Below, one piece after another: positions 4,260 through 56,658 of a DNA stretch of 64,000 bases. Both the position numbers and the translations under genes were made by a program. Under the pieces are notes generated by a model. The model did not search any database. It was not told where the DNA came from and saw nothing but the letters and a program-made list of their open reading frames with translations. The stretch is from Candidatus Auribacter fodinae (lineage in GTDB: Bacteria > Auribacterota > Auribacteria > Auribacterales > Auribacteraceae), in the NCBI GenBank assembly GCA_003599815.1, contig QZJZ01000005.1:33410-97409 (forward strand), in the 5' to 3' direction. Within the stretch, counting starts at the first letter, position 1. Each line of letters opens with the position of its first letter.

Positions 4260-4521
4260 GATATCTGGCTGTTTGGTTTGGCAATATTATAAATATTATT
4301 CCTTTGATATCAAATTACAGCGGAAGAAGCGAGCAAATTTTAATAAAAGATGACGAGGTTAGTATAAAACATCATCATATCAGAGAATATTTCAACAGTT
4401 AAATTTCGTTTCAGAAGAACATGATCCTGATTAACATTGTGGCATAATAAATGCTTTAAATTCTTTGAGTACCTCTGTCTTGCATTTTTATCATATTTAA
4501 TCATAAATAAAGGAGCATGGA

Positions 4522-6366: not shown

Positions 6367-6502
6367 TCGACAAGTCATCAGGAATACTCAAATATTCTTA
6401 ACTCTTTGGTATCGTCTCATCACTTTTGTAAAGTTAGAAATCTCTTAGTATACTAGTTGGTCTGTAATGCTGAACATATAATGTACATAAAAGTGGCAAA
6501 TA

Positions 6503-8719
6503 ATGGATATAGCTGTTATTTTTTCATTGTATGAGGATTCGTATCTTTTCAAGAGGTTTTTCGCGTGGGCAGAAGAAGTCAGCAAAGATAACTGTTCTTT
6601 TCATTTTATCCACCATTCTCAAAAAACTTTAAACAATACTATAGATTTTCCTGGAAAATATATTCATCTTGTTGACTACAAGGATGTTGTGCTTTATCTT
6701 GAGGAGAATGAAATTGATATTGTGCATTCGTATATCGGAGATAAAGTAACCTTCTTGGCGCGGGCGGCTGGAGTAAAACGGATAATTCAGCATCCTATAT
6801 CCAGTTATACTGAACTGGGAGTGGATTCTTACCCGGCAGACTGTATTTGTTGTTCCGATGAAAGTATGATTGGCCAGCTGAAAAAACAGTGTCCGCAAAA
6901 ACATATAGTTTCCATCAAAGACAGCATTAATATCGAGCCGGATCATAAGCCTCAGGATCTGCGGGATAAACTAGGTTTTAAATCCGGTGAAATCGTAATC
7001 GGTTTTGTCGGGAAATTATGGCGTCAGAAATATTTCGATAAGTTCATTTCAATGTTTTTGGAGTTATGCAAAAAAAATAAGAAATTGAAACTAGTACTCG
7101 ACGGGAGGACTTATAATAAACAATTTGAAGACTACCTTAATAGTAGGGTTGAATCAATATATTTTCATGATGATCCTGATGAACTGATCGCTAACTCGGA
7201 TATTTTGGTAATCAAGTCGGAAACATATTTTAATCCATATGGCGAAATTATTACTGAAAATGATCAAGAATATAACTGGTGGTTAATGCATGCAATGGCA
7301 TATGCTATCCCATTTATAACGATTTATAATAAGACTCAGAAACAAAGAAAGGAACTTATTAACGACAAAGAAAACTGTTTTGTCGTTGGCTTGGATGATA
7401 TGGCAGCTTATCAGGCAGCGCTCGCAGAACTAATCGATAATAAAAGAATCCGTGATACGTTTGGGCAAAACGGTAGAAAGATTCTGACAGAGGGTTACGG
7501 TGTAAATCTTGTAGCACAGCAATATAAAAAGCTTTATAACTATCTCTTGTCCGAACAGTTTGTGTCTGATTATCCATCAGCATCAAAAGATGCGGAGACC
7601 CATTTTCTGGGTAATATGATCGAACTGAAATCTCTTAAACTTGATCACAGAAAAGTGCTTGTTGTCCGTTCGGGAAGTCAAGTAAAAACAGAGGAATTGA
7701 TTACAAATATGACGAGAGCGTTTCCATCCGTGGAGTTGTCTCTTTGTTGTCATAAACGGAATTTGTCTGAAATGCGAAAATACGCAAATATCCATGAAAT
7801 TATTACCTATCAAAAATCCGATAGTTTTGATCAGGCAAGAATGAAAGCAGCCATTAAAAAGATTAATCGAAAAAAATATGATTATGTCTTTTTTGTCTTT
7901 AATAGTATTTTCCAGGAAATGACCCATCAGAATCTGTTGGATATTATCGTACAGTTACGTCCTGAATCAGGTATTGTAATATCGACGGGGAAACTCAACT
8001 TCCTTTATCCTTTTGTGCGGAAAGATGATATTGAGAGAAACCATCTTATAAATAAATATAAAAAAGCGCTGGACCCTGAGCAAGAATATGTGATTACTTC
8101 TCCATGGGAAAAGAATATTGCACATCTGCCGAAATGGGATCGATTTAAAATCGAGAAATACAGGGAAGTTATTAACTCCAGCAAAAAAATTCTTTGTTGC
8201 GGAGACCCCACTAATCCTATGTTCGGATTGTTTGAGGATGAACTAAAGGGTAAAGAACTCATTTCTGTTGATATCGTTGAAAAATGCAATCGTGATATAA
8301 TTGCAGATATTTGTGATTTACACATGATTGAGGATAACTCTATAGACGGTATTATATGTTATGCTATTTTAGAACATGTATATAATCCTTTCAAAGCAGT
8401 TGATGAATTGCATAGAATTTTAAAATCTGGTGGAAAAATAATGATGTTTGTTCCATGGATGTGGCGCCATCACTCGAATAAAAAAACATGCTTTGATTTT
8501 TATCGCTTCTCATGCGAGGGTGCCCGGTATTTGTTAAAAGATTTTTCCTATGTGGAATTGTCTCCTATACAGGGTAAACTGGAAGCGGTTTTTGTCTACG
8601 TCCTTCAGTTTATAAAATACCGGTCATTACTACACAAGCCGCTAGTCAAACTTATAAGAAGATTTGACAAGTGTACAGAAGAGGATCCTTCCGGATTTAA
8701 TATTTTTGCTGTTAAATAG
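6503..8719 (+). CDS. Glycosyltransferase (GT1/GT4-like) fused to a C-terminal class-I SAM methyltransferase domain
   Basis: Middle region GFVGKLWRQKYFDKFISMF...LVLDG is GT4-like. C-terminal ILCCGDP...DGIICYAILEHVYNP...LKSGGKIMM is Methyltransf_11-like. 738 aa. Confidence 0.5.
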   Translation: MDIAVIFSLYEDSYLFKRFFAWAEEVSKDNCSFHFIHHSQKTLNNTIDFPGKYIHLVDYKDVVLYLEENEIDIVHSYIGDKVTFLARAAGVKRIIQHPISSYTELGVDSYPADCICCSDESMIGQLKKQCPQKHIVSIKDSINIEPDHKPQDLRDKLGFKSGEIVIGFVGKLWRQKYFDKFISMFLELCKKNKKLKLVLDGRTYNKQFEDYLNSRVESIYFHDDPDELIANSDILVIKSETYFNPYGEIITENDQEYNWWLMHAMAYAIPFITIYNKTQKQRKELINDKENCFVVGLDDMAAYQAALAELIDNKRIRDTFGQNGRKILTEGYGVNLVAQQYKKLYNYLLSEQFVSDYPSASKDAETHFLGNMIELKSLKLDHRKVLVVRSGSQVKTEELITNMTRAFPSVELSLCCHKRNLSEMRKYANIHEIITYQKSDSFDQARMKAAIKKINRKKYDYVFFVFNSIFQEMTHQNLLDIIVQLRPESGIVISTGKLNFLYPFVRKDDIERNHLINKYKKALDPEQEYVITSPWEKNIAHLPKWDRFKIEKYREVINSSKKILCCGDPTNPMFGLFEDELKGKELISVDIVEKCNRDIIADICDLHMIEDNSIDGIICYAILEHVYNPFKAVDELHRILKSGGKIMMFVPWMWRHHSNKKTCFDFYRFSCEGARYLLKDFSYVELSPIQGKLEAVFVYVLQFIKYRSLLHKPLVKLIRRFDKCTEEDPSGFNIFAVK

Positions 8720-8797
8720 GCACCATATCGCTGATGAAGTGTGGTATCAGCCTTCCTCCGCAATCCACTGCGAATAAAAATCTTTTCAGCCCGCGAT

Positions 8798-8867: not shown

Positions 8868-9569
8868 ATGCGCAACGTCTTCTCGCTGTCGTGTATATGC
8901 GTACTGCTTATATATGCGGCAGGCGTCTCTGCCTATGAACTGACATGGGATTACCTTGCTCGCACCACATGGGGCGACGGCTTCCGCCCTGACGGCGACA
9001 GTTACGGCAACACCGCTGTCTGGGACTACAAGTATACGCCGTTAAATTCCACAAGTTACGCGCTGTATCAGGCGCTTTCCAACTGGTATGAACCCTATGG
9101 GATGTGGTCGTACCTTCCTGTTCCCGGTGTTGCGGCTGATAACAACTGGCTGGTCGTCGCGGTTAATACTGCTCATCCCGGCAACCTGAATGACCTCGCG
9201 ATACAGTTCATCGCTCCGATGGACGGTGTGTATGACGTCTCTGTCCAGCTGTACAATTGGAACGGAGAAAATCTCAACGGCGCTGACGGGCAGGATTTCT
9301 ACCTGCAGAAAATGTCGTCCATTCTTGACACCGAAACCAATCCGGTGCATGGCACATCGGTTTTATCCGCGCAGGACGTATCACTGCTGGCGGGGGAGTC
9401 GCTCTTTCTGCGTATCAATATGAAAGCGAATTCACATTATGACAGCATATCGGTTCAGCAGTTTGTCGTCACCGGAACGTTTCCTGACCCGGTAGTCGTG
9501 CCTGAACCTGCGTCTGTCCTCCTGATGTTAGCCGGGTTAAGCGTCCTTATCCGCCGCCTGCGGCGATAA
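8868..9569 (+). CDS. PEP-CTERM sorting-domain secreted protein
   Basis: N-terminal signal peptide. C-terminal VPEPASVLLMLAGLSVLIRRLRR (PEP motif, TM helix, basic tail). Paralog of the partial gene at 63307-63981 (YELTWDYLARTTWG vs YDITWDYLERTGWG). Confidence 0.75.
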   Translation: MRNVFSLSCICVLLIYAAGVSAYELTWDYLARTTWGDGFRPDGDSYGNTAVWDYKYTPLNSTSYALYQALSNWYEPYGMWSYLPVPGVAADNNWLVVAVNTAHPGNLNDLAIQFIAPMDGVYDVSVQLYNWNGENLNGADGQDFYLQKMSSILDTETNPVHGTSVLSAQDVSLLAGESLFLRINMKANSHYDSISVQQFVVTGTFPDPVVVPEPASVLLMLAGLSVLIRRLRR

Positions 9570-9770: not shown

Positions 9771-12700
9771 TTACAGCGATGTGTCGATAGCGGGCGATGC
9801 GGACCGCAGGCGAAGAATCTTTCTGCCTATCGTTGTGCCGGATAGCGTGAACGCCCCAAGCTGGTGCGAATCGGTATATTCGTTGAACGGCTGAGAGTTG
9901 ACAGTTAGCTCCTCAATCTGTTCAGCGGCAAGGTCGCTGAACAGGAAAAGAGCAAATGCCAGTGTTTTGATGCCTGATACGCTGACTACGCCAGCGAGCC
10001 CTGCTTCCTGAAGAAGTTCGGTATTGTTGGACGCGAGTTTCAGCTGGGGCGACGAAATGTCATAGGTGCGAATAATGTCCGCCATGATGTCTCTGTTCGG
10101 TGTCTGTGAGCTCATTGCAAACCAGTCGAAAGCCTCTTTGTCGACTACACGCCCCCCGTGGGATATGAGCGTATCGTACAGCGATTTGCCGAGCATGCCT
10201 GTTATTTGGCGCTGGGTGTAGTTTCTGGAAAAGAGGACAAACCGCAGTGTTTTATTCTTTTCTGTGTACGTATCCATGAGTGCAAACAGTGATATGAACA
10301 GGTATTTCCTCATGTTCATGTTTTCTTCAGGTGTATTGGGAAGCATGCCGGTGCTGTCGAGGTCGAGCATAAGCACATCCATATCTAATGAATCGGGAAC
10401 GGGAATTTCAGCGCCGTCGCCCGATGGTATTGATTTATGTATAATATACTGTAAAACAGCGAATTGCGATGGAGCCATGTTCAGCTTGTCCGCAACAGTA
10501 AATGACTGAATGAACCTTTCTGACGGAGTCAGGCTTGGAGAAACCAGAACGGCGAAAATCGCGTTTTTGTTTAACATCGCAGGGTCAGGCAGTACTGATA
10601 AGCCGCCTGACAGGTATTTGTTGAGCAGTGCGGCTGATGACGGTACATTAAAGCTGAAACTGAGGAACAGTGAGTTTACTTCCTGCTGGGTAAACTCCGG
10701 TTTGGTGTTTGCCATTGAGCTGAGCAGTCTGCCGGTCAGCTCAGCGGAAAGCCGTTCGATGCGTTTATGAGCAACAGACCTGCTGATCCCCAGCAGGTTG
10801 CCGATGTCTTCATGGATAACGCCGCGCTTATATTTTAAATAGAGCATAACCTGTTCGTCTTCAGGCAGTGACCGGAAAAAGCCGTCGAGCGTTTTATTTG
10901 CAGATACCGATAGCGGAGCGGTGAACACTCCCGGCTCGATTATATTTAACAAAAAGGTGAAATCTCTGACCGTCGCCAGCTCTGAAACCGTTTCTTTTTT
11001 AGAACTATACGCCGCTCCGGTATCTTCACGGAAAATCAGGGGGAACCGTTTCGATTTCCGGTACGCCATTTCGTTCATGGCCCGCGCGATAGAGGCGCTG
11101 TCGTGTGATTCGTCTTCCCATGCGATGTTTAACGCCATAAGGGCATTTGCCGATGCGGACTCCACATATTTTTTCGCGTTCGTGTCGTTGGTTGTGAGGA
11201 TGTTAGATATCCCTTTCCCACCAAAAGGCATATTCTCATGAAACTTTAGGAACAGGAAGAACTGGTCTTCAAGGGAAAGAGCGTAAAAAGCACGTTTGTA
11301 CACGCTGTTGTCAAACGGTAGTTCATGGAGTTCAGGGATCCGGGTCATGAATTCGAACGAGTCTAACCCCGCAATTTTATCAGAATATTCTGACATCAGC
11401 GACTGAGCTGTATACTGGGGGTAGAGGCGTTTACGGAGTTGATCGGTGAACAGCGACATGTATGGCGCAAGTTCAGCGCTCGTATGGAATAATGCCTCTA
11501 TCTCTTTTGCCGGCATCTGTTTTTTCAGGCGCAGGTAGAGTATTTTCCTGTCCTGAATGTTCAGGTTTTTTGTGAATATGTCGCGGAGAATTGACTGCGT
11601 CTGATCGTTGAGCGGGAACGTGTACATTCCTCCTTCAATAAGGTTGAGGAGGAATGTATAGTCGTCCAGCTCGCGCGTTTCTTCGTATATCCGTTTTTGT
11701 GAAACAGGTGTGCCGGATTCCATGGCGTCATCCTTGAAGAGCAGGATAAAGGGATCGGCGCCTCTGTATATCCGCCTGTTGACTGCGAGCATCATATCGT
11801 CTGTGGAGTCGAACTTTTCTGAGAGAATGACGTTGATCGTTTCCATCAAGCGTGATTCCGCGTTTTGTGTTTCTTTTTGCCATCCTGATGAGGCGATCCT
11901 GATAAGATTGAAGACCCCGTCTCCGCCGGATACGGGCCGTTTCTCATAATGTTTCATAAAGAGTATGACCTGATCCTGATAACTCAATAGTTTAAACGCC
12001 AATTCCAGCATGGTGTCGGTGAATTCTTTTTCCGCTACTGCCGGGACGGCGCGTAGAAAGCTGAAATCCGTGATGCCGGATATCTGTTCAGTGAAGTATT
12101 CAGACGTACTCTGCCGTTGTGATGTCCCATTTTCTATCCATTGCCGTACGAGCCGTGTTACTTTGCTTTGTAAGTAAGGTGTAGTGAGTATTTTGCCTGT
12201 TAAACTCCGAACTGATTTCAGTGTAGCGCCTTGTTTGTTCCTGAGATACATTTGTAACTGTTCTTCCGGCGTGAATTCATTGAAAAACAGGTCTTTGAGC
12301 ATCGATTGAAACTCGTCTGATAACGGAAATGTATACAGCCCGCCTTCAAGCGAATTGAGCATAAAAGTGAAGTCATCAAGGTCATTGATTTCCTGCTGGA
12401 TTGTATCCTTGCCGACAGGTTCCATATCTGTCCGCATATCGTCACGGAAAACGATGGGGAATACCGGTACGCCGGTATAAAAATGTTCATTGAGCCGGGC
12501 GGGTAATCGTGCCGGGTCAGGGTATTGCGCAAACAGGAAGAGCGCATCGACAAACCGTTGGCGTGCCGCTTCATTGAACGGCAGTTCCGCGTTGTCCGAC
12601 GTGAAAAGGGTGTCCCACACTCCTTTTCCGCCGCCGTTCGGCATATTGAGGTATACGCGCATATACAATATAATCTGATCGGCGAAACTCATCGATCTGA

Positions 12701-15700
12701 AAACGGGTTCCAGCATTTCAGGGTCCACTTCGTCCGGTTTTGGAGCGAGCGCCGCCAGCCAGTTGAAATCCGATAACTGCGTTATGCTGTCCCTGTACTG
12801 CTCGAAAACTGATACGGATTGTTCCCTGCCTGCCTGCCGTTGCTGTACAAGGCGGTTAATCTTTTGGGTGACAAACAGGATGGTTTTTTTCCATCCGGTG
12901 ACAGCGGATATCCGCGCGATCGGCATCTGGTAATGGTAATGCAGGTAGAGTATGACTTGCTCGTTATAGGTCAGTTCTTTAGTGAACACGTCGCCCAGCA
13001 TTGCCTGCTGTACAGCGTCGAGAGGGAACCTGTACAATCCTCCTTCTATCGCGTTCAGCAGGAATGAGAAATCGGTTATGCCCGCTATTTCATCCCTGAG
13101 AGCCTGCGGGTCAAGTGAATGTTCCTCAGCTGGGATATCCACCTTAAATACCATAGGCGGTTGGTCTATACCTGCGTATATCTTGCTGTGCAGGAGTGCG
13201 GAAAAGGCGCTGGGATTATCATCATACTCCTGTGTGTACAGGCTGATCGCCTGTTGCAGGTGTTCTTTTGCGGCATCGATGCGTGCGGTTAAAGTCTGGA
13301 AACGTCCGGCGATCTGCCGTTCTATGCCGTTGAGCCATCCTCGAAGTGGCAGTTTCTGGTAATAGCGCATGTACAGTATGATTTGATCGCTGAAACTGAG
13401 CGCCCTGAACGCCGCTTCGTTTTCTTCCGGGCTGTGTGCCCCTTCAGCGAGCAGGTTGTCAATAAACGAGAAGTCGGATAGGACTGCGATCTTTTCGGAG
13501 TACTCGTTCAGTCCGGGAAAATAGCCTGATGACGTTTCGCCCATCATGAAATCCAGCATTTGTTCCCTGAGGTCGCTGAACGCTTTGTTAATTTTACTCA
13601 GGTGTAAGGGGTGGATATCCTGTATCTCTTTGTATGTCATGCGTTTTGCGAAAAAGATATATGCCAGTTTCTGCATTTCGGCCGGCAGTTGATTGAAGAA
13701 AGACTTCAGTTGATCGTTATCAGGTAAGTACGGCGCTCCTGCGGGGAGCAGGTTCAGCAAAAATGTGTAATCATTTATTCCTTCAAGGCTGATTGACTCA
13801 AAATTTGTGACGGGAGCGCTGATTACGGAAACAGGTGCGGTCATTTTGAATGTGAACGGGTAAGTGCCGTTATATGCCTGTCTTTTGACCGTATCGGCGT
13901 ACTCGAACGGGTCATATTCCTTATCGGGCTGAAACAATACCATCGCTTTGTTGAACGTGCTGATCGCGATGCGCATTCGTTGCCGTATGCTAACCTCCGC
14001 AAAGGGAAGTATATTCGACAATGCGATCGGTTTTAGTCCCTGATCGTAGGCGCTGAACAGGAGAAATTTATCTTCAAACATGAGAGAATCGAACACCTGT
14101 TTAAGCTGTTCGTCTGTCAGGCCTTGCGGTATTTTTTCGGTGTAGTCCGGCAAAATGAATGCGCGCAGGAACCCGAAATCCTCATTCGCGCGCAGGCGTT
14201 CGAGCAGATCGAAATAATGAAATTTAAACACAATATTTTTGAGATACAGCGCGGCGTCCTCTTCAGTTACGCTCATTGCGCCAGCAAGTTGAGCGGCGGT
14301 GATTTTGCCGTTTTTAAAGAGCCCGAACACGTCCTGTTCCTGTTTGTCGAGAAACGGCAGATAGCGCTGAAAACGATCATAGTTCAGGAACACCTCATTT
14401 GCTTTGGCGAGTGTGTTTATGAGATGTGTTATTTCACCAGTTTCAATATGGAACGCTTCTTTTACAGCATTGATTCCATCGCGGTGCGTATCTGCGTTGC
14501 GGTACACCCGGAGCATATCGCGCTGTTCCGTCGAAAGGAGATTGGAGAGAATCCCGTCGAAAAAGGCTTGCTGGTGAGTGAGGTTTATGTCTTCTGTATC
14601 CTCGCGTTCCATACGCAGTTCCATATCTTCCAGCTCATCATTGGCGAGCGGGTCGAGATCGCGCATGACGATGTTTTCTTTTGACTTGCCCGAATCGTCG
14701 TATGTTCCGTCAAGATCGGTAAGGCGTGAACCGGTATAATGCAGGTTTGATTTCAGAGTATCATCAGCGTAAAAGCGCGCTATGCCGATTCGAACTTCTT
14801 CTTCCACAAACGCAGGGAACGAGCCGAACTCAGAGAGTATGCGGTCGAGCTCCTCTTCAGTACGCTGTGTGTGAATGCTGGTGAGCAGGGCAAGATAGCC
14901 TTCCTGATCAATGTCTCCGGTAGTTATATAGCGTGCGCGCCATGCCCGTGAAAGGCTGTGGCGTGACCGTGCAGTTTCCAAAGCCAGAGCGTGGTACTGG
15001 TTGACCAGTTGTTCTATGGCTTCGGTATCGCCGTTGCCCGCGGCGATCCATGTTTGTTTTTCTTTTTGTGCCTGTGTTTGTTCCGGTGTAACTCTCTGCT
15101 GAGGAACACGCACCGGAGCGGTTGATACTGCCGGTGAAATGCGCACGGCAAGCTCCTTATCGTCAGCGCTTCGCAGGACATGAACGTTACGCACTTTTGA
15201 CAGTTCCATTTGCAGTACAGCTATGGAGCCGCGGTCATCTCCTATGTTTTCATACAGTATGCGAATTACTGATGATAAAGCGTGATGTATATCTTTCAGG
15301 TCAAGTGAGAAGTCGATTGATATATGGTTGAGCCGGGGGTTGAAATGGTCTGTCAGCAATCGTAAATCTGTTGGTAATCCTTTCGGACGCAAAGCAATCG
15401 GCGCATTGTTCTTGTGCGCATTGACCAGCAGATAGGTGGTATAGCGGGGTACAAGGCTGTTCGCGAGGCTGTACGTCCCGTGTATGTCACGGCTAGCAAG
15501 CCCGGTTTCAGCAAGGCTGTCAAGCAGGGCTGATATGTCCTGCGATGTCAGGTCGAGCTGGTACATATCGTATTCGAGTTCAGGGAGTAATCCTTCCACT
15601 GAATACGGATGGGTTGACAGCAGTCCAAGTATCGACATTTGTATCTGGTTGATTTTTCGGATGTACTGCGAGTAGCCTCGGTAATTGATAAATTCCTGAA

Positions 15701-17630
15701 CTGAGCCGTCAATTAGGCGCACGACTTCCAGAACCGTGCCTGTAGACGCGCTGTCCGAGTCGAAATTATCGGCTGATGTAGTGTAATCGACGAAAACGGT
15801 TTCTTTGATTTTCGAGTGCGGGTCGGTGATTACCAGCTCTGCTATGATCCTGTTTCCCACAAAGCTCACGGAATCAACGGATATCAATGTATCATACTCA
15901 GCTGTTCTCAGCGCGGTGTTTATGGCGGAACGTATGGTTTCCTGAATATGGTCGCGCAAAGCGAGCCTGAGCGACAGGGGGTACTTCTGCAATTCGTTCT
16001 GTATGTAACTGTTTAAGAGCGTAGAGGTGAACAGGAGTTTCATCTTTTGCGACAGGGCTGTCTTGACCGCCGGATCAGCCAGCGATTCCGTTGCCAGCCA
16101 TGATGCGATTTTCAGACTGCTGACCTGAGGAGCCATAACCTGTTCCAGAGGGGTCATGTAGTTGGACAACAGAGAAAAATACGGGATCGGTTTTTCGTTA
16201 TGCGCGGCATTCGGGGTAATCACCACATACGATATATTTTTCTCTGCCAGCATTTTTGTTATTCCGTCGGAATGATACCCTCCCGCTATCAGAACAGCGG
16301 CGTCCTGTTTGTTTTGTTCCATCACTCTGAAGGTGTTGCGCACCAGATCGTTTTCCCGCGCGCTTGCGGATGAGTAAAAGAGCTCGTAGTTTTCGAGTTC
16401 CGCAATAATAATTGGTAGATCTATATTCAGATCGGGCATCAGCGCTGATATTGATTTCAGGATTGACTCATGGTTCACTGTTTTGAGGGCTGCTATTTCT
16501 TCCTGCGATATGGTAATAGCCGCAAGATGTTGTATAAGAGTGATATATCGTGCTATATCGTAAATTTGCCGTTCTTTCTCGTTAGATATCAGGGCGGCAT
16601 ACACTTTTGAGCGAAGCTCTTCTTCTTCACGCAGAATTGCGGTGTTGTCGAATGAATCGTATGCCTGAAGGTACGCGCAGAACTTGTTGAAATGCGCGTA
16701 TACGGAGGTATCCATGCTGTTTTCGTTCATCAAACCAGAAAGGATCGTGTGGTATTCGAGAGGCGCGATGGTGTTTGTTTTGAAGCGTAGTTCTTGTTTG
16801 AAAAGATGTTCGCTCTGTTCGGGATCAAGGCGCTCAATAAGTTTGTTAAGTATTTCTGCACGTTCTGTATCTGCCTTTTGAAAATCGAGTTCCGATTCCA
16901 TTTGTGACAATGACATCAGTATAGAGAAGTTCGTCAGGTTCGCATATTCCACGAGGTTTTCATCAGCGGCGCGTGCGAGTTTGCGGCAGTAATCGAGAAA
17001 AATGTCCTGATTCGCAAGAAACTGGCTGACCAGTGAGTCGAACTGCTTTAGTTTCTTTGAATAGATGTTGTCTTTCAGCTCCTCGAGACGGATACTGACC
17101 GCACTGAGCAGGTTTTCCAGCTGGCTGTGCCCCTGTTCAGCACGTTGGTATGAAATGATGTTGGCGTTATACAATGCAGGGGTCTCGATGCCATGTAAAG
17201 AAAATAACTGCTCATTTTCGTTGCCGGAGTTGCGGATAATTGAAATGTATTCAGATCCGTCGATTTTGCCGTTCCTGAGAAAATAATCAGACACGGTTTC
17301 CTTCGTTTTCGTGTTTGGAAAACGGGAAAATTCACTGGTGTCTATTAGTCCGGCGGCGCCTTCCACGCAGACCAGATTGATGTTGTATTGCGTGTTGAGG
17401 TGTTCCAGTATGCGGGCGAGATTTTTTTGCGCGCCGTAGTTGGTATGGTTATCCTGAATATGAATAATGAGTTTGTTATCCGCCTGATGCTGTCCGTTTA
17501 CCGACCCGTACTGGTGCGGTATTTTTATATCGCCGGCAGATACCCGTGCGTTATTTTGATCCGCCAGAACCGGGGCACAAAAAATAAATTCCGCCACGAT
17601 CAGGCAGAGAATAAAAGGCCGTCTGAGCAT
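9771..17630 (-). CDS. Giant (2619 aa) secreted protein: TraB/GumN-like N-terminal domain plus at least five tandem ~234-aa A/B repeat pairs with sigma-70 region-4-like HTH segments
   Basis: Signal peptide MLRRPFILCLIVAEFIFCAPVLADQ. AAVLIAGGYHSDGITKMLAEKNISYVVI matches the TraB/GumN C-terminal GxxH motif. Type-A repeats (D[FY]TFLLN.IEGG.Y.FPL ... LPEDEQVMLYLKYKRGVIHEDIGNLLGISRSVAHKRIERL) start at aa ~1285, 1517, 1750, 1987 and 2221. Type-B repeats (DFSFL...DQIILYMR.Y...P.GGGKG) alternate at aa ~1384, 1619, 1852 and 2089. Confidence 0.8.
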   Translation of the reverse strand: MLRRPFILCLIVAEFIFCAPVLADQNNARVSAGDIKIPHQYGSVNGQHQADNKLIIHIQDNHTNYGAQKNLARILEHLNTQYNINLVCVEGAAGLIDTSEFSRFPNTKTKETVSDYFLRNGKIDGSEYISIIRNSGNENEQLFSLHGIETPALYNANIISYQRAEQGHSQLENLLSAVSIRLEELKDNIYSKKLKQFDSLVSQFLANQDIFLDYCRKLARAADENLVEYANLTNFSILMSLSQMESELDFQKADTERAEILNKLIERLDPEQSEHLFKQELRFKTNTIAPLEYHTILSGLMNENSMDTSVYAHFNKFCAYLQAYDSFDNTAILREEEELRSKVYAALISNEKERQIYDIARYITLIQHLAAITISQEEIAALKTVNHESILKSISALMPDLNIDLPIIIAELENYELFYSSASARENDLVRNTFRVMEQNKQDAAVLIAGGYHSDGITKMLAEKNISYVVITPNAAHNEKPIPYFSLLSNYMTPLEQVMAPQVSSLKIASWLATESLADPAVKTALSQKMKLLFTSTLLNSYIQNELQKYPLSLRLALRDHIQETIRSAINTALRTAEYDTLISVDSVSFVGNRIIAELVITDPHSKIKETVFVDYTTSADNFDSDSASTGTVLEVVRLIDGSVQEFINYRGYSQYIRKINQIQMSILGLLSTHPYSVEGLLPELEYDMYQLDLTSQDISALLDSLAETGLASRDIHGTYSLANSLVPRYTTYLLVNAHKNNAPIALRPKGLPTDLRLLTDHFNPRLNHISIDFSLDLKDIHHALSSVIRILYENIGDDRGSIAVLQMELSKVRNVHVLRSADDKELAVRISPAVSTAPVRVPQQRVTPEQTQAQKEKQTWIAAGNGDTEAIEQLVNQYHALALETARSRHSLSRAWRARYITTGDIDQEGYLALLTSIHTQRTEEELDRILSEFGSFPAFVEEEVRIGIARFYADDTLKSNLHYTGSRLTDLDGTYDDSGKSKENIVMRDLDPLANDELEDMELRMEREDTEDINLTHQQAFFDGILSNLLSTEQRDMLRVYRNADTHRDGINAVKEAFHIETGEITHLINTLAKANEVFLNYDRFQRYLPFLDKQEQDVFGLFKNGKITAAQLAGAMSVTEEDAALYLKNIVFKFHYFDLLERLRANEDFGFLRAFILPDYTEKIPQGLTDEQLKQVFDSLMFEDKFLLFSAYDQGLKPIALSNILPFAEVSIRQRMRIAISTFNKAMVLFQPDKEYDPFEYADTVKRQAYNGTYPFTFKMTAPVSVISAPVTNFESISLEGINDYTFLLNLLPAGAPYLPDNDQLKSFFNQLPAEMQKLAYIFFAKRMTYKEIQDIHPLHLSKINKAFSDLREQMLDFMMGETSSGYFPGLNEYSEKIAVLSDFSFIDNLLAEGAHSPEENEAAFRALSFSDQIILYMRYYQKLPLRGWLNGIERQIAGRFQTLTARIDAAKEHLQQAISLYTQEYDDNPSAFSALLHSKIYAGIDQPPMVFKVDIPAEEHSLDPQALRDEIAGITDFSFLLNAIEGGLYRFPLDAVQQAMLGDVFTKELTYNEQVILYLHYHYQMPIARISAVTGWKKTILFVTQKINRLVQQRQAGREQSVSVFEQYRDSITQLSDFNWLAALAPKPDEVDPEMLEPVFRSMSFADQIILYMRVYLNMPNGGGKGVWDTLFTSDNAELPFNEAARQRFVDALFLFAQYPDPARLPARLNEHFYTGVPVFPIVFRDDMRTDMEPVGKDTIQQEINDLDDFTFMLNSLEGGLYTFPLSDEFQSMLKDLFFNEFTPEEQLQMYLRNKQGATLKSVRSLTGKILTTPYLQSKVTRLVRQWIENGTSQRQSTSEYFTEQISGITDFSFLRAVPAVAEKEFTDTMLELAFKLLSYQDQVILFMKHYEKRPVSGGDGVFNLIRIASSGWQKETQNAESRLMETINVILSEKFDSTDDMMLAVNRRIYRGADPFILLFKDDAMESGTPVSQKRIYEETRELDDYTFLLNLIEGGMYTFPLNDQTQSILRDIFTKNLNIQDRKILYLRLKKQMPAKEIEALFHTSAELAPYMSLFTDQLRKRLYPQYTAQSLMSEYSDKIAGLDSFEFMTRIPELHELPFDNSVYKRAFYALSLEDQFFLFLKFHENMPFGGKGISNILTTNDTNAKKYVESASANALMALNIAWEDESHDSASIARAMNEMAYRKSKRFPLIFREDTGAAYSSKKETVSELATVRDFTFLLNIIEPGVFTAPLSVSANKTLDGFFRSLPEDEQVMLYLKYKRGVIHEDIGNLLGISRSVAHKRIERLSAELTGRLLSSMANTKPEFTQQEVNSLFLSFSFNVPSSAALLNKYLSGGLSVLPDPAMLNKNAIFAVLVSPSLTPSERFIQSFTVADKLNMAPSQFAVLQYIIHKSIPSGDGAEIPVPDSLDMDVLMLDLDSTGMLPNTPEENMNMRKYLFISLFALMDTYTEKNKTLRFVLFSRNYTQRQITGMLGKSLYDTLISHGGRVVDKEAFDWFAMSSQTPNRDIMADIIRTYDISSPQLKLASNNTELLQEAGLAGVVSVSGIKTLAFALFLFSDLAAEQIEELTVNSQPFNEYTDSHQLGAFTLSGTTIGRKILRLRSASPAIDTSL
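10730..14480 (-). repeat. Tandem protein-coding repeat array inside the giant gene, about 700-bp period (A+B units) with at least five copies
   Basis: Amino-acid periodicity 1517->1750->1987->2221 (233-237 aa). Copies have diverged and are not identical at the DNA level. Confidence 0.6.
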
Positions 17631-17849
17631 GTATCACCTTGCTTAAAGTTAATATTCCGAAAATGTTACCTCTATTATACCACACTAAACTCAAAAAAGA
17701 CAGGTTACAAAGAAAATCGGGTGCATTGTTGCTTATTTCAGCTAACCAATACAGCTTGATTGCCGAAAAAATGTGTTGAATAAAATACCCGAATACTGTT
17801 TATTGTATGATAGTATGATAATTATAAAACAAACCGGGAGGCATCAGGC

Positions 17850-18484: not shown

Positions 18485-21160
18485 TCAGACGCCGATAACT
18501 CTGGCTACTTCTTCCGATAACTGGTTTATCATGTAAGGTTTCTGAACGTATCCGCTGGCGCCGTTGTTGAGTATTTCCTGCGCTTTGCCGTCTTTGCCGT
18601 ATCCGGTGGATAGGATAGCCTTTACGCCCGGATTGATTTTTTTCATCGCGTCGAAACAGTCCTTGCCGTTTATTTCCGGCATAACCATGTCAAGGAGTAC
18701 GAGGTCGATTTCATCAGCGTGCTCTTGGTAATACTCCAGCGCTTCTTTTGCGTTGGAAAAGCTGACGACTGTATAGCCGATATACTGGAGCATCTCGCAG
18801 GCAACTTCACGCACGAACTTTTCGTCGTCGACGATAAGTATTGTGCCTGATCCCGATACGATACCTTCAGACGTGTTAGCCCGAGCTGTTTCCTTCGCCG
18901 CCGGGGCGACAGGGAAATAGAGTTTGAATACGGATCCTTCGCCGGGTTCGCTGTACACAGATATCGAACCGCCGTGGTTTCGTACGATACCGTATACCAT
19001 AGCCAGTCCCATGCCCGTGCCTTCACCTTGTTTTTTTGTGGTGAAGAACGGCTCGAAAATGCGTTGCTGGATTTCTTTGCTCATGCCGCATCCGGTATCT
19101 GATACGGATAGTACGAGAAAGTCGCCTTTTATCGCGCCGGGATGGCGTTTGCAGTATTCGCTGGTCAGGGTAACGTTTTCGGTTGAAAACACCAGTTCTC
19201 CGCCGTCCGGCATGGCGTGCTGTGCGTTGAGCGACAGATTGATGAGGATTTGCTGAATCTGGCCCGGGTCACCAAGTATTGCCGGCCGGGTTGCTCGAAG
19301 GTCGCTGGACATGACGACTTTTTTATCGACGGTGCGCGCCATAAGTGTCACCGCTTCCTTGATACTCTCGTTCATATCCACGGTTACGATCTGGAATTTG
19401 CCTTTGCGGGCGAATCCGAGAAGCTGTTGAGTCAGGTCGCGGGCCCGTTTCGCGGCATTCTCGATGGTCTGAGCGGAGCGGTAAACGGTTTCTTCCGGTT
19501 TTGTGGTCATGGTGATAAGGTTGGCGTATCCGAGTATTCCGGTCAGAATATTGTTGAAGTCGTGAGCGACGCCGCCGGCAAGCTGTCCGATGGCTTCCAG
19601 CTTTTGCGCCTGTGTGAGCTGTTCTTCAAGCGCTTTGAGCCGCGCAATGTCGGTAATTACATTTGCGAGGTATAGAGGTTCGTTCTGGTTGTTATAGATA
19701 ATGAAGCTGTTCTGAATGGTGGGTATGACTCTGCCGCTGATCGATTTGATATTCACTTCGCCAGTCCATTGCCCCTGTTCCAGTGTAACGGGTATGATTT
19801 CGTTTTCAAGAAGAGCGAGTTCGTTTTCATCGTAGAAACAGCGGATATTTTTGCCCATGAGTTCAGCGGTAACCACCGCGTCAAGCATTTCAACCATCGC
19901 GGGATTGCAGTAGGTGATAGTGCCGTTCAGTTCAGCCATCCTGAATCCGACAGTGGACAGTTCAGCGAACTTTTTGAATATGGCGAGCTGTTCTTCGGTT
20001 TTTGCCCGTTCGGTGATTTCCTGTTGCAGGTGTATATTGCTTGCATTCAGCTCCTGTGTCCGCTCGGCGACCAGTTCTTCAAGGTTATCCCTGTGCTGTT
20101 TCAGGCTGTTCTGTGATTCAGTGAGGTCTTCCAGCAGAGTGTTGAACGATCGTGCGAGTGTCTTGAACTCCTGATATTTTATGCGCGATTCATTGATTGA
20201 CGAGCATGAAGGATCCTGAGCGATAGCAGACGCCTGATCCGCCATAGCCCGCAGTGGTTCGCTCATTCGTGTAGCTATCAATGAGGCGACCAGCAGGCTC
20301 AGGATAATTACCACTGTGCCCAGCCCGGCGAATACCAACGTAAGGTGCCTTCGTTTCGCGTAGAGCGGTTCATTTGACGCGGCGTATACTACCCCGGGAA
20401 AATTACGTACCGGAATGAATACGGAATTGCGATTTGCCAGATGTGAATCTAACTCGTTGTCGTCAATACTGTTGAAATTTTTAAGCATTCGCCGGCTGAA
20501 AACGCTCTTGAGATGCGTATTTGTTTTGAGGTCGCGAATGGTATCGTTGTTTTTGTGAAGCAGTGACGCGTCATGTTTTTCTTCAAATTTTTGCCAGAAC
20601 TCCTGATCCTCCGCGATAACATATACGGCGAATGCCATGCCGAGGATGGAATCTTTCTGCATGATGGGTATGGAGTACAGGCTGATATACTTACCGTGGC
20701 ACTGGTGAAACTCTTTTTTAGACAAATTGTTATTGGATAGATTTTTTAAACACTTTGAAACGTTGCTTAAATGTTCCGGTATTTCCGGGATAAAGCGGTT
20801 GAAAGACGGTTCGTGGACAAAAAAGTAGATTCCATTGTGAGGATGGTACTGTTTTTCCAGTTGCTCTTCAACTTGCTGTTTCATGCCGAGCAGGAGGCTT
20901 ACCTTGATGGAGTTGTCAAACGCGAGGTTGCGAAGCTGGGTGTCGATCAGGTTGGTCTTTGTTTGGAGAACAATACTGATGTCGGATTCGTCAAGATGCA
21001 GTTTTTTATGGAAATCGCTGGATATGCTCTGGCTCAGTATTCCGTACAGAATGCCGAATATGAGGGCGAGAGTGATAGCGACGAACGTCACCATTACGCC
21101 TATCAGGTATGATGAGAATTTCTGGTTATGAGTGTTGTTAGGCATATCCGTATTCCGCAA
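18485..21160 (-). CDS. Hybrid sensor histidine kinase / response regulator with periplasmic sensor domain, HAMP, PAS, HisKA, HATPase and REC
   Basis: Two TM segments flank a ~230-aa periplasmic region. H-box GVAHDFNNILTGILGY, then N/G boxes. C-terminal ILIVDDEKFV...DLVLLDMVMP is a receiver domain. Confidence 0.9.
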   Translation of the reverse strand: MRNTDMPNNTHNQKFSSYLIGVMVTFVAITLALIFGILYGILSQSISSDFHKKLHLDESDISIVLQTKTNLIDTQLRNLAFDNSIKVSLLLGMKQQVEEQLEKQYHPHNGIYFFVHEPSFNRFIPEIPEHLSNVSKCLKNLSNNNLSKKEFHQCHGKYISLYSIPIMQKDSILGMAFAVYVIAEDQEFWQKFEEKHDASLLHKNNDTIRDLKTNTHLKSVFSRRMLKNFNSIDDNELDSHLANRNSVFIPVRNFPGVVYAASNEPLYAKRRHLTLVFAGLGTVVIILSLLVASLIATRMSEPLRAMADQASAIAQDPSCSSINESRIKYQEFKTLARSFNTLLEDLTESQNSLKQHRDNLEELVAERTQELNASNIHLQQEITERAKTEEQLAIFKKFAELSTVGFRMAELNGTITYCNPAMVEMLDAVVTAELMGKNIRCFYDENELALLENEIIPVTLEQGQWTGEVNIKSISGRVIPTIQNSFIIYNNQNEPLYLANVITDIARLKALEEQLTQAQKLEAIGQLAGGVAHDFNNILTGILGYANLITMTTKPEETVYRSAQTIENAAKRARDLTQQLLGFARKGKFQIVTVDMNESIKEAVTLMARTVDKKVVMSSDLRATRPAILGDPGQIQQILINLSLNAQHAMPDGGELVFSTENVTLTSEYCKRHPGAIKGDFLVLSVSDTGCGMSKEIQQRIFEPFFTTKKQGEGTGMGLAMVYGIVRNHGGSISVYSEPGEGSVFKLYFPVAPAAKETARANTSEGIVSGSGTILIVDDEKFVREVACEMLQYIGYTVVSFSNAKEALEYYQEHADEIDLVLLDMVMPEINGKDCFDAMKKINPGVKAILSTGYGKDGKAQEILNNGASGYVQKPYMINQLSEEVARVIGV

Positions 21161-22213
21161 TTATTGCGCTATTTCATCCGCGGCAAGAAGAATTGCCTGC
21201 GGGATGGTTATGTTGAGCGTTTTCGCGCGTGTTATGTTAAATGCCAGAGCGTACCGTTCAGCGTCTTCGATGGGGATGGATCCTGCCGAAGTGCCGCTCA
21301 GTATTTTTGCCGCCATGTTTCCTGCCTGTTCACCCATGGCGAAAAAGTCCACAGCCGCGCCTCCGAACAGGCCGAGCCGGGTAAACGCATAATTCAGAGC
21401 CATTTCCGGTTTTGTGGAATGTTTTGTGGTCCATTCAAATATCTGGGGTGCGGTATAGGTGTTCCCATCATTGTCTTTAAGCAACAGAGCAACAGGGTAT
21501 ATCACGCCTACGCTCGGGTCACTGTTGGCGCGGAATATTTCTTCCTGATACTCTTCGAATGATCTGACGATGACCATATCGTAATCGGATGTTACGGCTT
21601 CAGATGTCAGTTCAATCTCAATCTGTTTGGTTATTGCTTTGCCGGTAGGAGATTCGTCTACCAGAATCTTAACTGTTTTCAGTCCCGGAAGTATGCGGGA
21701 ATGGACTCGAATAGCGTCAGCGACGTGCAGTTTTTCATAGATACCTGTAATATTATGCCCGGGAACGGTGCGTGATTCAATACATGGTTTTTGCGCATGA
21801 TAATCCTCAGGCTGGGCGTTCATCCCGCAGAAAACCACGGCAATATCCGTGTCTGCAAGTTCCATGCCTACCGTCCTGAACGCGTTATCGTCGAGGGTTA
21901 CCAGCACATCCGGTTTGAAGGCGGCAATCAGTTCTATTGCCCTGTCCGCCTGCTGTTGTATCAGATCAGGTGTGTTGTTGGTAGTTTTCGTGTCCATGTA
22001 ATACGTTTGCAGTTCGAGGTTTTGCCCTTCGACAAAGCCTGCGCTCGCCAGCGCCTTGACAATGCCGTCGTGCTGGGGTTGACCGCATACGTGATTCTCT
22101 TCATAACTGTGGAGTATAAATATCTTATGCGATTCATCAGAAAAAGCCGCAACTGGAATAAGCAGTACAGATACAAGCGCGATGAGCGGTATGGTACGGA
22201 AACAGTTCTGCAT
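21161..22213 (-). CDS. Periplasmic substrate-binding protein, ABC-type 'uncharacterised transport system' SBP (PF04392-like)
   Basis: Signal peptide. The gene abuts the hybrid kinase start with no gap: stop at 21161, kinase start at 21160. Confidence 0.55.
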   Translation of the reverse strand: MQNCFRTIPLIALVSVLLIPVAAFSDESHKIFILHSYEENHVCGQPQHDGIVKALASAGFVEGQNLELQTYYMDTKTTNNTPDLIQQQADRAIELIAAFKPDVLVTLDDNAFRTVGMELADTDIAVVFCGMNAQPEDYHAQKPCIESRTVPGHNITGIYEKLHVADAIRVHSRILPGLKTVKILVDESPTGKAITKQIEIELTSEAVTSDYDMVIVRSFEEYQEEIFRANSDPSVGVIYPVALLLKDNDGNTYTAPQIFEWTTKHSTKPEMALNYAFTRLGLFGGAAVDFFAMGEQAGNMAAKILSGTSAGSIPIEDAERYALAFNITRAKTLNITIPQAILLAADEIAQ

Positions 22214-56475: not shown

Positions 56476-56658
56476 GCTATCTCCTTGTCTAAATTTAGAT
56501 TTTTTCGCATCATATATAGAGATATACCACATAAATTGAGGTTTTACCAACCGAGCCAAGATTTTATTCTAAAAAAAGTAATTCGAGCAATATTTTGATT
56601 TTGAGGTAGTAAACTATATCCAATAGCAGGATACACGCAGACTTAGCGTTTTACACTT

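Follow-up and report, generated by a model that had tools for sequence, protein, structure and literature searches.

A signal-peptide-bearing giant protein of Candidatus Auribacter fodinae combines a predicted hydrolase-like head with a tandem array of sigma-70 region-4-like units

We analysed a 64,000-nt stretch of DNA from the uncultured bacterium Candidatus Auribacter fodinae (contig QZJZ01000005.1, positions 33,410 to 97,409; hereafter the window), which encodes a 2619-aa protein whose modules appear to follow one another in the order Sec signal peptide, hydrolase-like head, neck, sigma-70-derived body and lineage-specific C-terminal domain. The body would stem from a sigma-70-family factor and comprise a faint region-2-like segment, two loose helix-turn-helix (HTH) segments and ten region-4-derived four-helix units. 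The reading that we prefer, held tentatively and as possible rather than probable, is that this is a Sec-exported, modular pre-protein headed by a hydrolase, in which the sigma-derived array serves as a binding platform in the envelope or matrix.

Results

The giant gene is intact and under purifying selection

The gene and its start region lie at the following positions:

9771..17630, minus strand: giant gene, 2619 aa plus stop, Candidatus Auribacter fodinae
17631..17690, minus strand: start region of the giant gene, with Shine-Dalgarno sequence, upstream stop and TATAAT read from the sequence

The product is 100% identical to RJP62053.1 / UniRef100_A0A3A4RH67, annotated as 'hypothetical protein'. 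A GGTGA Shine-Dalgarno sequence stands 5 nt before the ATG and a putative promoter element, TATAAT, about 45 nt before it. The ATG is the earliest possible start, with an in-frame stop two codons 5' of it, and the hydrophobic segment described below is therefore the true N-terminus of the protein; the concern of the first-pass annotation that this segment might be an internal transmembrane (TM) helix of a longer ORF is thereby refuted. Three further assemblies carry a colinear 2619-aa ORF, two at 96% identity and one at 61%. When compared with a 96%-identical ortholog, the gene as a whole has a dN/dS of 0.22 (head 0.115, array 0.25), and no nucleotide-level repeats were found in it despite the repeats in its protein. 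It is an intact, genuine gene on which purifying selection acts.

The N-terminus and amino acid composition point to export

17562..17630, minus strand: signal-peptide-like N-terminus, aa 1-23, MLRR / PFILCLIVAEFIFCAPVLA / predicted cut after VLA

The protein begins with MLRR followed by PFILCLIVAEFIFCAPVLA and DQ, which provides a basic n-region, an h-region with a Kyte-Doolittle value of 2.39 and V-L-A at positions -3/-1. On a heuristic reading of these three elements (n-region, h-region and small residues at -3/-1) this is a Sec (SPase I) signal peptide. The h-region contains a Glu that is conserved in the subfamily, and basic, hydrophobic and AxA-like N-termini are present in nearly all 95 homologs. 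Cysteine is absent from aa 501-2619 (0 of 2119 residues, compared with 1.24% in the other ORFs of the window, P = 3e-12), and the median content across the family is 0.21%; we regard the exclusion of Cys from the body as an independent hint of export. Exclusion of this kind fits substrates that are exported in an unfolded state. No TM segment was found between aa 23 and approximately aa 2545. The giant protein is thus likely to be exported across the inner membrane, and the earlier description of a secreted protein with a cleavable signal peptide stands to the extent that the N-terminus reads as Sec-type and the cysteine exclusion hints the same way.

Two other export signals were considered and rejected: Tat export, suggested by RRPF, because the 61% ortholog is without twin arginines, and a lipoprotein signal, because neither Cys of the signal peptide is preceded by a lipobox. 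No outer-membrane crossing route was identified near the gene, no translocation domain is recognisable in the protein, and its C-terminal end (...RLRSASPAIDTSL) is without the PEP motif, TM helix and basic tail of a PEP-CTERM tag.

The head resembles hydrolases of the TIKI/Ere/ChaN/TraB superfamily

16131..17561, minus strand: head, aa 24-500, with a ~290-aa helical insertion in an alpha/beta core of the TIKI/Ere/ChaN/TraB type

TIKI and PrgY are extracytoplasmic members of this superfamily. The AF2 model of the head (pLDDT 90.9) has a predicted alpha/beta core with a central parallel sheet like that of the solved members, and its best structural matches include the lipoprotein ChaN and the effectors HopBA1 and RRSP. 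Judged by this model, the head folds as a hydrolase of the TIKI/erythromycin-esterase/ChaN/TraB superfamily, from whose members it differs by the long helical insertion between the two halves of the core. Its putative catalytic residues are D60, H62, E90 and H453; across 25 diverse heads the last three are invariant and D60 is kept in at least 90%. They map onto the catalytic set of RRSP, E3900/H3902/E3930/H4030 (PMC6254334), with a His-to-Glu spacing of 28 residues in both proteins, such that the head carries the 2His/2Glu set described there with Asp in place of the first Glu and is putatively active. We infer the hydrolase activity, and any substrate, from these conserved residues only.

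The first-pass annotation had assigned the N-terminal ~490 aa to the TraB/GumN/PrgY family. The superfamily is the same, but the Pfam TraB/PrgY/GumN model (PF01963) did not match the query at E <= 1 and matched 1 of the 25 homologous heads (E 0.083), and none of the Pfam families of the TIKI/Ere/ChaN/TraB clan matched the query. Nothing beyond the superfamily fold supports the suggested link to GumN and xanthan clusters. Heads of ~500 aa also exist on their own (six short proteins in a head-profile search among preselected candidates), though within giant proteins the head is always N-terminal.

Ten region-4-like units form the array

13926..14183, minus strand: unit 0, aa 1150-1235, opens pair 1 and keeps an HTH-like C-terminal half
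13542..13781, minus strand: unit A1, aa 1284-1363, found by the unit HMM
13230..13481, minus strand: unit B1, aa 1384-1467, found by the unit HMM
12828..13082, minus strand: unit A2, aa 1517-1601, net charge of +6 on the recognition-helix equivalent, Sigma70_r4_2 E 0.17
12525..12779, minus strand: unit B2, aa 1618-1702, P-N-G-G-G-K-G loop
12132..12380, minus strand: unit A3, aa 1751-1833, found by the unit HMM
11826..12077, minus strand: unit B3, aa 1852-1935, found by the unit HMM
11400..11672, minus strand: unit A4, aa 1987-2077, found by the unit HMM
11115..11369, minus strand: unit B4, aa 2088-2172, modelled, helix order as in A5 with a short third helix
10731..10970, minus strand: unit A5, aa 2221-2300, Pfam Sigma70_r4 match at aa 2253-2290 (window 10761-10874)

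Self-comparison of the protein gives offsets of 233-238, 470, 705 and 935 aa, a period of ~234 aa, and a unit HMM detects exactly these ten units, which make up five pairs over aa 1150-2300 (for unit 0, iE 3e-7 and 2.6e-26 after iteration). The five A/B pairs and the period that had been described from the sequence are confirmed, with the correction that the regular array begins at aa 1150 and not at ~1050.

Pfam Sigma70_r4 scores 29.5 bits against the whole protein (cut-off 24.1) and 19.1 bits, below that cut-off, against A5 alone (E 9.5e-4). A5 is the one unit in ten that is recognisable as sigma region 4 by sequence; apart from A5 and A2, no tested unit matched Sigma70_r4 or Sigma70_r4_2 (PF04545 / PF08281). 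All eight PDB matches of the A-unit profile are sigma region 4 (E 0.11-1.5), while the B-unit profile returned chance matches only, to a potassium channel; the A and B profiles are homologous to each other (hhalign 96%, E 2e-9). The predicted structure of B4+A5 shows the compact helical HTH fold of region 4 and matches sigma region 4 almost exclusively, with Foldseek TM values of 0.74-0.86 to isolated region-4 domains. This model was built on a non-overlapping B+A period alignment of eight rows (the internal repeats and one ortholog), and the other four AF2 models score 75-79. The earlier equation of type-A repeats with sigma region 4 thus holds for the predicted fold, and for a single unit by sequence. 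From these profile comparisons we read the B units as region-4-derived, like the A units.

A helix of the form L-x-x-x-E/D-Q-x-x-L-x-L precedes the HTH in all units. The A units keep the helix-turn-helix, while in the B units a P-x-G-G-x-G loop replaces the turn, which is lost in B1-B4 (4/10 units). The conserved type-B core noted previously was borne out as DQ..L.M+.Y...P.GG.G. A search of 1.84 billion representative proteins did not find the A/B unit of the query elsewhere.

Segments flanking the array

15081..16130, minus strand: neck, aa 501-850, no recognisable family, common to the closest relatives P0002-P0007 only
14751..15068, minus strand: weak sigma region-2-like segment, aa ~855-960, GDTEAIEQLVNQY ... 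DIDQEGYLALL ... FVEEEVRIGIARF
14196..14579, minus strand: two HTH-like segments, aa ~1018-1145, from reading the sequence, missed by the unit HMM
9774..10682, minus strand: C-terminal domain, aa 2317-2619, no family, common to P0006 and P0007 only

Residues ~855-925 give weak matches in the N-terminal register to ShbA (E 0.0016), sigma70-ECF (TIGR02937, E 0.0059) and SigH (E 0.034); all NCBIfam matches of the region-2-like segment are sigma models, and all lie far below cut-offs. Pfam HTH_16 matches it weakly as well (E 0.037). The region-2 assignment stays weak because comparisons of aa 840-1290 with the ECF sigma factor of the window and with the relatives P0007 and P0064 (phmmer, hhalign) were not significant. 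A single-sequence search of aa 841-1280 against the PDB returned nothing useful. The second HTH-like segment aligns weakly, in register, with the LuxR-type HTH of RhlR (E 0.61). At the C-terminus, aa 2545-2563 are weakly hydrophobic and not conserved in P0002, and a homolog search with the C-terminal domain yielded only a fragment, from a third relative.

The head defines a family of giant proteins

At least 95 giant proteins of 1.5-4.5 kaa have the same head directly after a signal peptide; by the source names of the homologous sequences they come from Omnitrophota (the majority), Auribacterota and Elusimicrobiota. Their cargo is variable and cytoplasm-type, and includes sigma-70 modules, phosphoglucomutase, CsrA, kinases, receiver domains and glutamine synthetase. 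Two relatives carry sigma modules that pass curated thresholds. P0007 (2726 aa) shares the head, neck and C-terminal domain of the query; its sigma-70 r2-r3-r4 module is bona fide, the protein scoring 154.6 bits on sigma70-ECF (in 8 stretches) and 107 bits on RpoD_Cterm, and it also has extra region-4-like stretches. In P0064 (Elusimicrobiota, 1818 aa), r2 and r3 are accompanied by five tandem r4 copies of ~62 aa at a 68-aa period, flanked by TM clusters with the CPBP-like intramembrane-protease motifs EExxxR, FxxxH and HxxxN. Since the frame of head, neck and C-terminal domain in P0007 encloses a true sigma-70 module, the Auribacter array is best read, from sequence, as an expanded and degenerated sigma module. 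Jackhmmer searches from region 4 of P0064 or P0007 did not reach the units of the query, and the matches of the unit HMM in P0007 were only weak (E 0.01-0.1). On a 105-kb ENA contig, a further relative has the gene only as short ORFs, P0096 (343 aa) and P0104 (271 aa).

Genomic neighbourhood

18485-21160, minus strand: hybrid PAS histidine kinase/receiver, just upstream of the start of the giant gene
21161-22213, minus strand: ABC-type substrate-binding protein, upstream on the same strand

The kinase and ABC protein are kept beside the orthologs at 96% and 61% protein identity; in a related locus (L001) the orientation of this pair to the giant gene differs. The window contains five PEP-CTERM-tagged ORFs as well as polysaccharide genes, in agreement with the earlier view of the locus as one of PEP-CTERM cargo and EPS genes. 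Downstream, the polysaccharide context is not conserved in the 61% ortholog.

Discussion

Candidate functions of the probably exported array

In the reading that we prefer, Sec would carry the giant protein across the inner membrane, for which the signal peptide and an almost complete lack of Cys speak, and the head would act as a hydrolase in its processing, anchoring or trafficking, a role that may be common to all family members and separate from the function of the cargo itself. The acidic, rigid helical array would then act, within the envelope or matrix of a cell surface rich in polysaccharide and PEP-CTERM proteins, as a platform for multivalent binding. Most units appear to be without the features of sequence-specific DNA binding, and nucleic acid might still be bound by unit 0, A2, A3 and A5, whose recognition helix has stayed basic. 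The cytoplasm-type cargo of the relatives counts against this reading, as it points to a protein that either is located in the cytoplasm or acts within a different cell.

A broader claim, which we consider doubtful, is that the whole family is Sec-exported, has an active TIKI-like head and takes entire cytoplasmic modules, complete sigma-70 factors among them, beyond the cytoplasm of the producing cell, and that the Auribacter ten-unit array works extracytoplasmically. If this were true, either the array would find its ligands, nucleic acid or partner proteins, within the polysaccharide/PEP-CTERM matrix, or it would target the transcription machinery of a different cell; the head would be a new trafficking or processing module for giant-protein cargo. 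Such an array, derived from a sigma factor and functioning outside the cytoplasm, would to our knowledge be without precedent.

The N-terminal segment might instead be an uncleaved anchor that leaves the body in the cytoplasm, where the array, possibly once freed by proteolysis, would interact with promoters, anti-sigma factors or RNA polymerase and act as a giant sigma factor or sigma decoy in the manner of PhyR-type sigma mimicry. The bona fide sigma-70 modules of P0007 and P0064 would need RNA polymerase, the position of the latter between TM clusters with CPBP-like motifs is suggestive of regulated release, and the conserved hybrid histidine kinase, the cytoplasm-type cargo of the family and the faint region-2-like segment ahead of the array all fit such a regulator. 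We nevertheless think this proposal unlikely: the arginines before the hydrophobic segment, the neutral residues after it and the V-L-A site predict N-in/C-out topology or cleavage, and this predicted export signal argues against the array reaching the cell's own RNA polymerase. There is also no further TM segment to bring the chain back into the cytoplasm, and so extreme a lack of Cys is unusual in this genome for a protein of the cytoplasm. Structurally, the head has the lipoprotein ChaN and the secreted effectors HopBA1 and RRSP among its relatives, and nine of the ten units no longer match sigma models.

It is rather improbable that the exported HTH array cross-links extracellular DNA into the polysaccharide/PEP-CTERM matrix. 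The signal peptide and Cys exclusion, the predicted region-4 HTH fold, the polysaccharide and PEP-CTERM genes around the gene and the basic recognition-helix equivalents of A2, A3 and A5 (+6, +3 and +3) and of unit 0 (~+3, counted from the sequence) are what such a matrix protein would be expected to have. The idea is weakened because the array is acidic (net charge -42, pI 5.1), because the B units are without the HTH turn, with neutral or acidic recognition-helix equivalents in 3/4 of them, and because 9/10 units fail sequence models of DNA-binding HTHs, A5 alone approaching one. The polysaccharide context that is lost downstream in the 61% ortholog and the missing PEP-CTERM tag also count against it, and we favour a binding scaffold over a DNA-binding matrix.

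Delivery of the protein into a target cell is in our view quite improbable. There the sigma-4 array would titrate activators, anti-sigma factors or RNA polymerase of the target, and cleavage of host proteins or release of the cargo would fall to the head, analogously to modular MARTX-type toxins. The effectors among the structural matches of the head, the unfolded export that Cys exclusion fits and the cytoplasm-type cargo, which would make sense inside a target cell, are consistent with such delivery. So is the predominance of Omnitrophota in the family, a group with reports of predation or dependence on hosts and of multi-enzyme giant proteins that bear signal peptides (PMC10066038; bioRxiv 10.1101/2023.11.21.568195; 10.64898/2026.06.07.730766). 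Against it, a free-living, fermentative way of life has been inferred for Auribacterota, and Ca. A. fodinae has genes for flagella (PMC9324843); no machinery for secretion or injection adjoins the gene in any locus examined, and no translocation domain is recognisable.

An artefact, whether a chimeric ORF out of misassembled repeats, as the first-pass annotation had cautioned, or a pseudogene in decay, is a negligible explanation: the ORF is long, repeat-containing and metagenome-derived, and one relative has only the short ORFs P0096 and P0104, but the idea is already contradicted by the uninterrupted ORF of equal length in four independent assemblies (including that at 61% identity), the dN/dS, the absence of DNA-level repeats and the confident structure models of the head and repeat pair.

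Relation to known systems

Few modules that bind DNA and proteins in bacterial transcription are as well understood as sigma region 4, and ten tandem derivatives that follow an export signal would put this fold to a new use. A5 matches region 4 of ECF and FliA-type factors by sequence. Whereas sigma factors have one copy, the query has ten, its units add a conserved N-terminal D-F-x-F-L motif, and about half of them are without the HTH turn; the array is acidic, sits in a signal-peptide-bearing 2619-aa protein and has a region-2 partner that is barely recognisable. P0007 and P0064 are like the query in their signal peptide, TIKI-like head and several region-4 copies, theirs following r2-r3, and P0064 differs in the TM/CPBP-like modules around its sigma part. 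With the TIKI/Ere/ChaN/TraB-PrgY-GumN superfamily, including RRSP and HopBA1, the head shares the predicted core and the His-Glu/His arrangement. PhyR uses a sigma-like domain for protein binding and not for transcription; it is a small response regulator of the cytoplasm and contains a single sigma2-sigma4 unit, and the query, unlike PhyR, has no evident receiver domain, NepR-like partner or cytoplasmic location.

The family context outweighs the single gene, as a catalytically intact-looking head and a signal peptide recur in ~100 Cys-poor giant proteins. As far as the available portions of the reports on Omnitrophota giant proteins go (West-Roberts et al. 2023; Nielsen & Lui 2026 preprints; Seymour et al. 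2023), those proteins come from the same clade neighbourhood and, like the query, combine an export signal with cytoplasm-type domains, are modular and repeat-rich, and have old protein-level repeats without DNA-level tandems; no sigma-derived module, common TIKI-like head or cysteine exclusion was found in those portions. The head family offers a handle on a question from recent work on Omnitrophota, namely why domains for metabolism and regulation occur in signal-peptide giant proteins and where they act. The Omnitrophota proteins are described there as at least 10-20 kaa long, a length that the query, from an Auribacterota fermenter, does not reach; at 2.6 kaa and with separable domains, it is small enough for laboratory study of topology, head activity and unit binding.

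An intact gene for the giant protein

The giant protein is the 2619-aa product of an ORF on the minus strand (9771..17630) and matches RJP62053.1 (UniRef100_A0A3A4RH67), annotated as a 'hypothetical protein' of the MAG Candidatus Auribacter fodinae, at 100% identity. A signal-peptide-like N-terminus is followed by a head (aa 24-500), a neck, a repeat array and a C-terminal domain. The first-pass annotation had raised the concern that the signal peptide might lie inside a longer protein; the ATG, preceded by a TATAAT (~45 nt 5′) and a GGTGA Shine-Dalgarno sequence (5 nt 5′), has an in-frame stop two codons 5′, which makes the hydrophobic segment the true N-terminus. Nor is repeat collapse or chimerism through misassembly an issue, since no tandem or dispersed repeats were found at the nucleotide level within the gene; three further assemblies carry colinear, uninterrupted 2619-aa orthologs, at 96% identity (GCA_040756935.1 and a Logan assembly) and at 61% (an ENA contig). 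The gene is under purifying selection: against a 96% ortholog, dN/dS is 0.22 for the whole protein, 0.115 for the head, 0.39 for the neck and 0.25 for both the array and the C-terminal domain. In a third relative, at 58-59% identity, the gene is seen on one 105,549-bp ENA contig only as short ORFs (P0096, 343 aa; P0104, 271 aa), reflecting either a decaying copy or assembly frameshift errors.

An array of predicted sigma-region-4-like units

When the protein is compared with itself, offsets of 233-238 aa and their multiples appear, together with half-period offsets of ~100 and 134 aa, and a unit HMM finds exactly ten units in five pairs (starts at aa 1150, 1284, 1384, 1517, 1618, 1751, 1852, 1987, 2088 and 2221). 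Both repeat types open with an (I/L)-x-D-F/Y-x-F-L motif and are homologous across their first ~65 columns (hhalign 96%, E 2e-9); in B units a P-x-G-G-x-G loop takes the place of the first HTH helix. There is little sequence support for sigma region 4: the Sigma70_r4 model gives 29.5 bits over the whole protein and 19.1 bits with A5 alone, reaches E 0.17 with A2 and matches no other unit. The A profile retrieves only sigma region 4 chains from the PDB (E 0.11-1.5), and its alignment with the region 4 of the window's own ECF sigma factor is in register (E 1e-4, probability 57%). In a structure model of B4+A5 (pLDDT 86, pTM 0.82), Foldseek gives TM-scores of 0.74-0.86 to isolated region 4 of SigF and SigR, and the predicted B4 helices follow the order of those in A5, the third being short. 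We consider the sigma-region-4-like fold of the units settled as far as a prediction can settle it. The earlier description of a signal-peptide-bearing giant protein with a sigma-4 repeat array is confirmed with small corrections, and the interpretation given with it is supported in part.

Bulk DNA binding, as in the matrix protein first proposed, is unlikely given that the array is acidic (net charge -42, pI 5.1) and the B units have lost the HTH turn. Some nucleic-acid binding is possible, judging from the basic recognition helices kept in A2 (+6), A3 (+3), A5 (+3) and the first unit, unit 0 (about +3 by manual count). The array may serve as a binding platform. When 1.84 billion representative proteins were searched with a profile of the A/B period, it was recovered, beyond the protein's own cluster, only in P0096, the fragment of the third relative.

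Upstream of the array, the only family matches of aa ~855-960 are sigma models in the region-2 register, all far below their cut-offs (ShbA, E 0.0016; SigH, E 0.034; sigma70-ECF, E 0.0059 over model positions 1-148). We read DIDQEGYLALL within this region as resembling the DLIQEG signature of region 2.2, and aa 1083-1138 give a weak alignment to a LuxR-type HTH; the sigma/HTH likeness of the region before the array is suggestive only.

A shared head in front of variable cargo

The sole stretch common to the 95 homologs found is aa ~30-500. This head is always N-terminal, after a signal-peptide-like segment, in proteins of 1.5-4.5 kaa. Most of these belong to Omnitrophota MAGs; Auribacterota and Elusimicrobiota are also represented. 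The bodies behind it are of cytoplasmic type (phosphoglucomutase, nucleotidyl transferase, CsrA, glycogen synthase, kinases, receiver domains, enolase, glutamine synthetase), and two carry true sigma modules. P0007 (2726 aa) has the head, neck and C-terminal domain in common with the Auribacter protein and matches sigma70-ECF with 154.6 bits over eight stretches and RpoD_Cterm with 107 bits. P0064, from Elusimicrobiota, contains r2, r3 and then five canonical r4 copies in tandem, repeating every 68 aa. As these relatives have true sigma modules, and P0007 also shares the frame, we interpret the Auribacter array as descended, through expansion and degeneration, from a sigma-70 module that the giant-protein frame already contained. 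The P0064 module lies between two TM clusters (aa 616-740 and 1509-1590) with CPBP/CAAX-protease-like motifs (EExxxR, FxxxH, HxxxN), a hint of regulated intramembrane proteolysis.

The head was initially described as TraB/GumN/PrgY-like, which fits the superfamily and not the family. The query has no Pfam match in aa 24-500, and among 25 aligned heads one matches TraB_PrgY_gumN (E 0.083) and eight match Cofac_haem_bdg (ChaN, Tiki superfamily; best E 1.3e-4). Invariant in all 25, numbered along the full-length protein, are H62, Q68, E90, G91, G147, Y154, F418, R425, G450, G451, H453 and P473. The AlphaFold model is confident (pLDDT 90.9, pTM 0.79), and an insertion of ~290 helical residues separates the core's two halves. 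D60-x-H62, E90 28 residues on and then H453 form the same set as E3900-x-H3902, E3930 and H4030 of the effector RRSP, a structural relative of the head; these residues are essential in RRSP and the set is common to active TIKI-superfamily enzymes (PMC6254334). Stand-alone heads of 491-545 aa also exist (P0098-P0101; contigs of 28 kb and 186 kb carry examples), making the head an autonomous module. Because it is the constant part preceding variable cargo, it may have a generic role in processing, anchoring or trafficking.

Probable export and its alternatives

On a heuristic reading, the N-terminus (MLRR-PFILCLIVAEFIFCAPVLA-DQ) is built like a Sec/SPase I signal peptide, with all three parts present. 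A Tat signal was ruled out, as the ortholog lacks the RR, and a lipoprotein signal was rejected. The next segment of transmembrane hydrophobicity is at aa 2545-2563 and is not conserved in the ortholog. Cysteine exclusion is, in general, a mark of exported proteins. The mature protein has three cysteines and aa 501-2619 have none; the background, from 33 other ORFs in the window, is 1.24% (P = 3e-12), and the median of the 95 homologs is 0.21%. This provides an independent compositional hint of export, and we infer that the protein is exported through Sec.

The main tension is that the sigma modules and other cargo of the relatives belong in a cytoplasm, which keeps two alternatives alive. The protein could be an effector, its cargo working in the cytoplasm of another cell, a role at odds with the free-living, fermentative lifestyle inferred for Auribacterota (PMC9324843). 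It could instead be a tethered regulator facing its own cytoplasm, where such cargo would be at home; the N-terminal charge distribution, the lack of a TM segment returning the chain and the cysteine exclusion all argue against this. An exported protein with a binding-platform array is the reading we tentatively prefer.

The protein falls within a recognised, poorly understood kind, the modular and apparently exported giant proteins known from Omnitrophota and their relatives. The searched text of the Omnitrophota studies (PMC10066038; bioRxiv 10.1101/2023.11.21.568195; 10.64898/2026.06.07.730766) describes giant proteins with signal peptides and metabolic or regulatory domains and discusses their localisation paradox; those proteins have at least 10-20 kaa, whereas ours has 2619 aa and its homologs 1.5-4.5 kaa. 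The same text mentions no sigma-derived modules, common TIKI-like head or cysteine exclusion, and a full-text literature search combining Sigma70_r4, repeats and signal peptide returned nothing relevant. A sigma-4 array in an exported-looking giant protein is an unusual and testable arrangement, whose localisation and function we infer.

Two further features of the N-termini were observed. In the query's subfamily (window 17562-17630, P0002-P0006), the middle of the h-region carries a conserved Glu (AEF, TEI, IES, VES, VEA), which plain Sec signals do not usually have. In one subfamily (P0027, P0029, P0031, P0033, P0035, P0049, P0050, P0057, P0063-P0065, P0069, P0071, P0077, P0079-P0081), the predicted cut is directly followed by (A/S)-(E/S)-(S/T)-x-F/L-W-x-E-R-R, which may mark the N-terminus of the mature protein for sorting or recognition. 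Basic residues follow the motif, atypically near the cut for Sec substrates, and internal TM clusters are often present.

Genomic surroundings

The window holds polysaccharide genes (asparagine synthase, methyltransferases, glycosyltransferases, a flippase, Wzm/Wzt-type ABC exporter components), several PAS histidine kinases and five ORFs ending in a canonical PEP-CTERM tag (VPEP, hydrophobic helix, basic tail), a tag absent from the giant protein.

PEP-CTERM ORFs in the window
8868-9569, plus strand, shares a 'TWDYL.RT.WG' N-terminal region with 63307-63981
49502-50188, plus strand, C-terminal tag
54820-55569, plus strand, C-terminal tag
55761-56513, minus strand, C-terminal tag
63307-63981, minus strand, C-terminal tag and 'TWDYL.RT.WG' N-terminal region

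The only neighbours conserved beside the orthologs are a hybrid PAS histidine kinase/receiver and an ABC-type substrate-binding protein, just upstream of the start of the giant gene in three species or strains.

Kinase and binding-protein pair
18485-22213, window
4995-8762, ortholog locus L001
5418-9146, ortholog locus L003

The L001 locus has two insertions between these genes, an IS200-type Y1 transposase and a small receiver protein. No secretion apparatus was found adjoining the giant gene, and the P0007 gene sits among housekeeping genes. A Thoeris-like pair (ThsB_TIR, ThsA_Macro; 3155-4558 of the P0007 locus, L002) lies ~3 kb upstream of the latter and is probably unrelated to it.

Window positions 4001-8000 have a GC content of 0.36, compared with about 0.46-0.49 elsewhere, and hold a double methyltransferase (CmcI + TylF) and a glycosyltransferase-methyltransferase fusion; this stretch may be a horizontally acquired polysaccharide-modification cassette. 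An 882-aa ORF at 27667-30315 (minus strand), adjoining phosphate-transport-like genes, is an unusual fusion of WD40/beta-propeller matches (aa ~100-460) with an ABC permease, BPD_transp_1 (aa 700-874).
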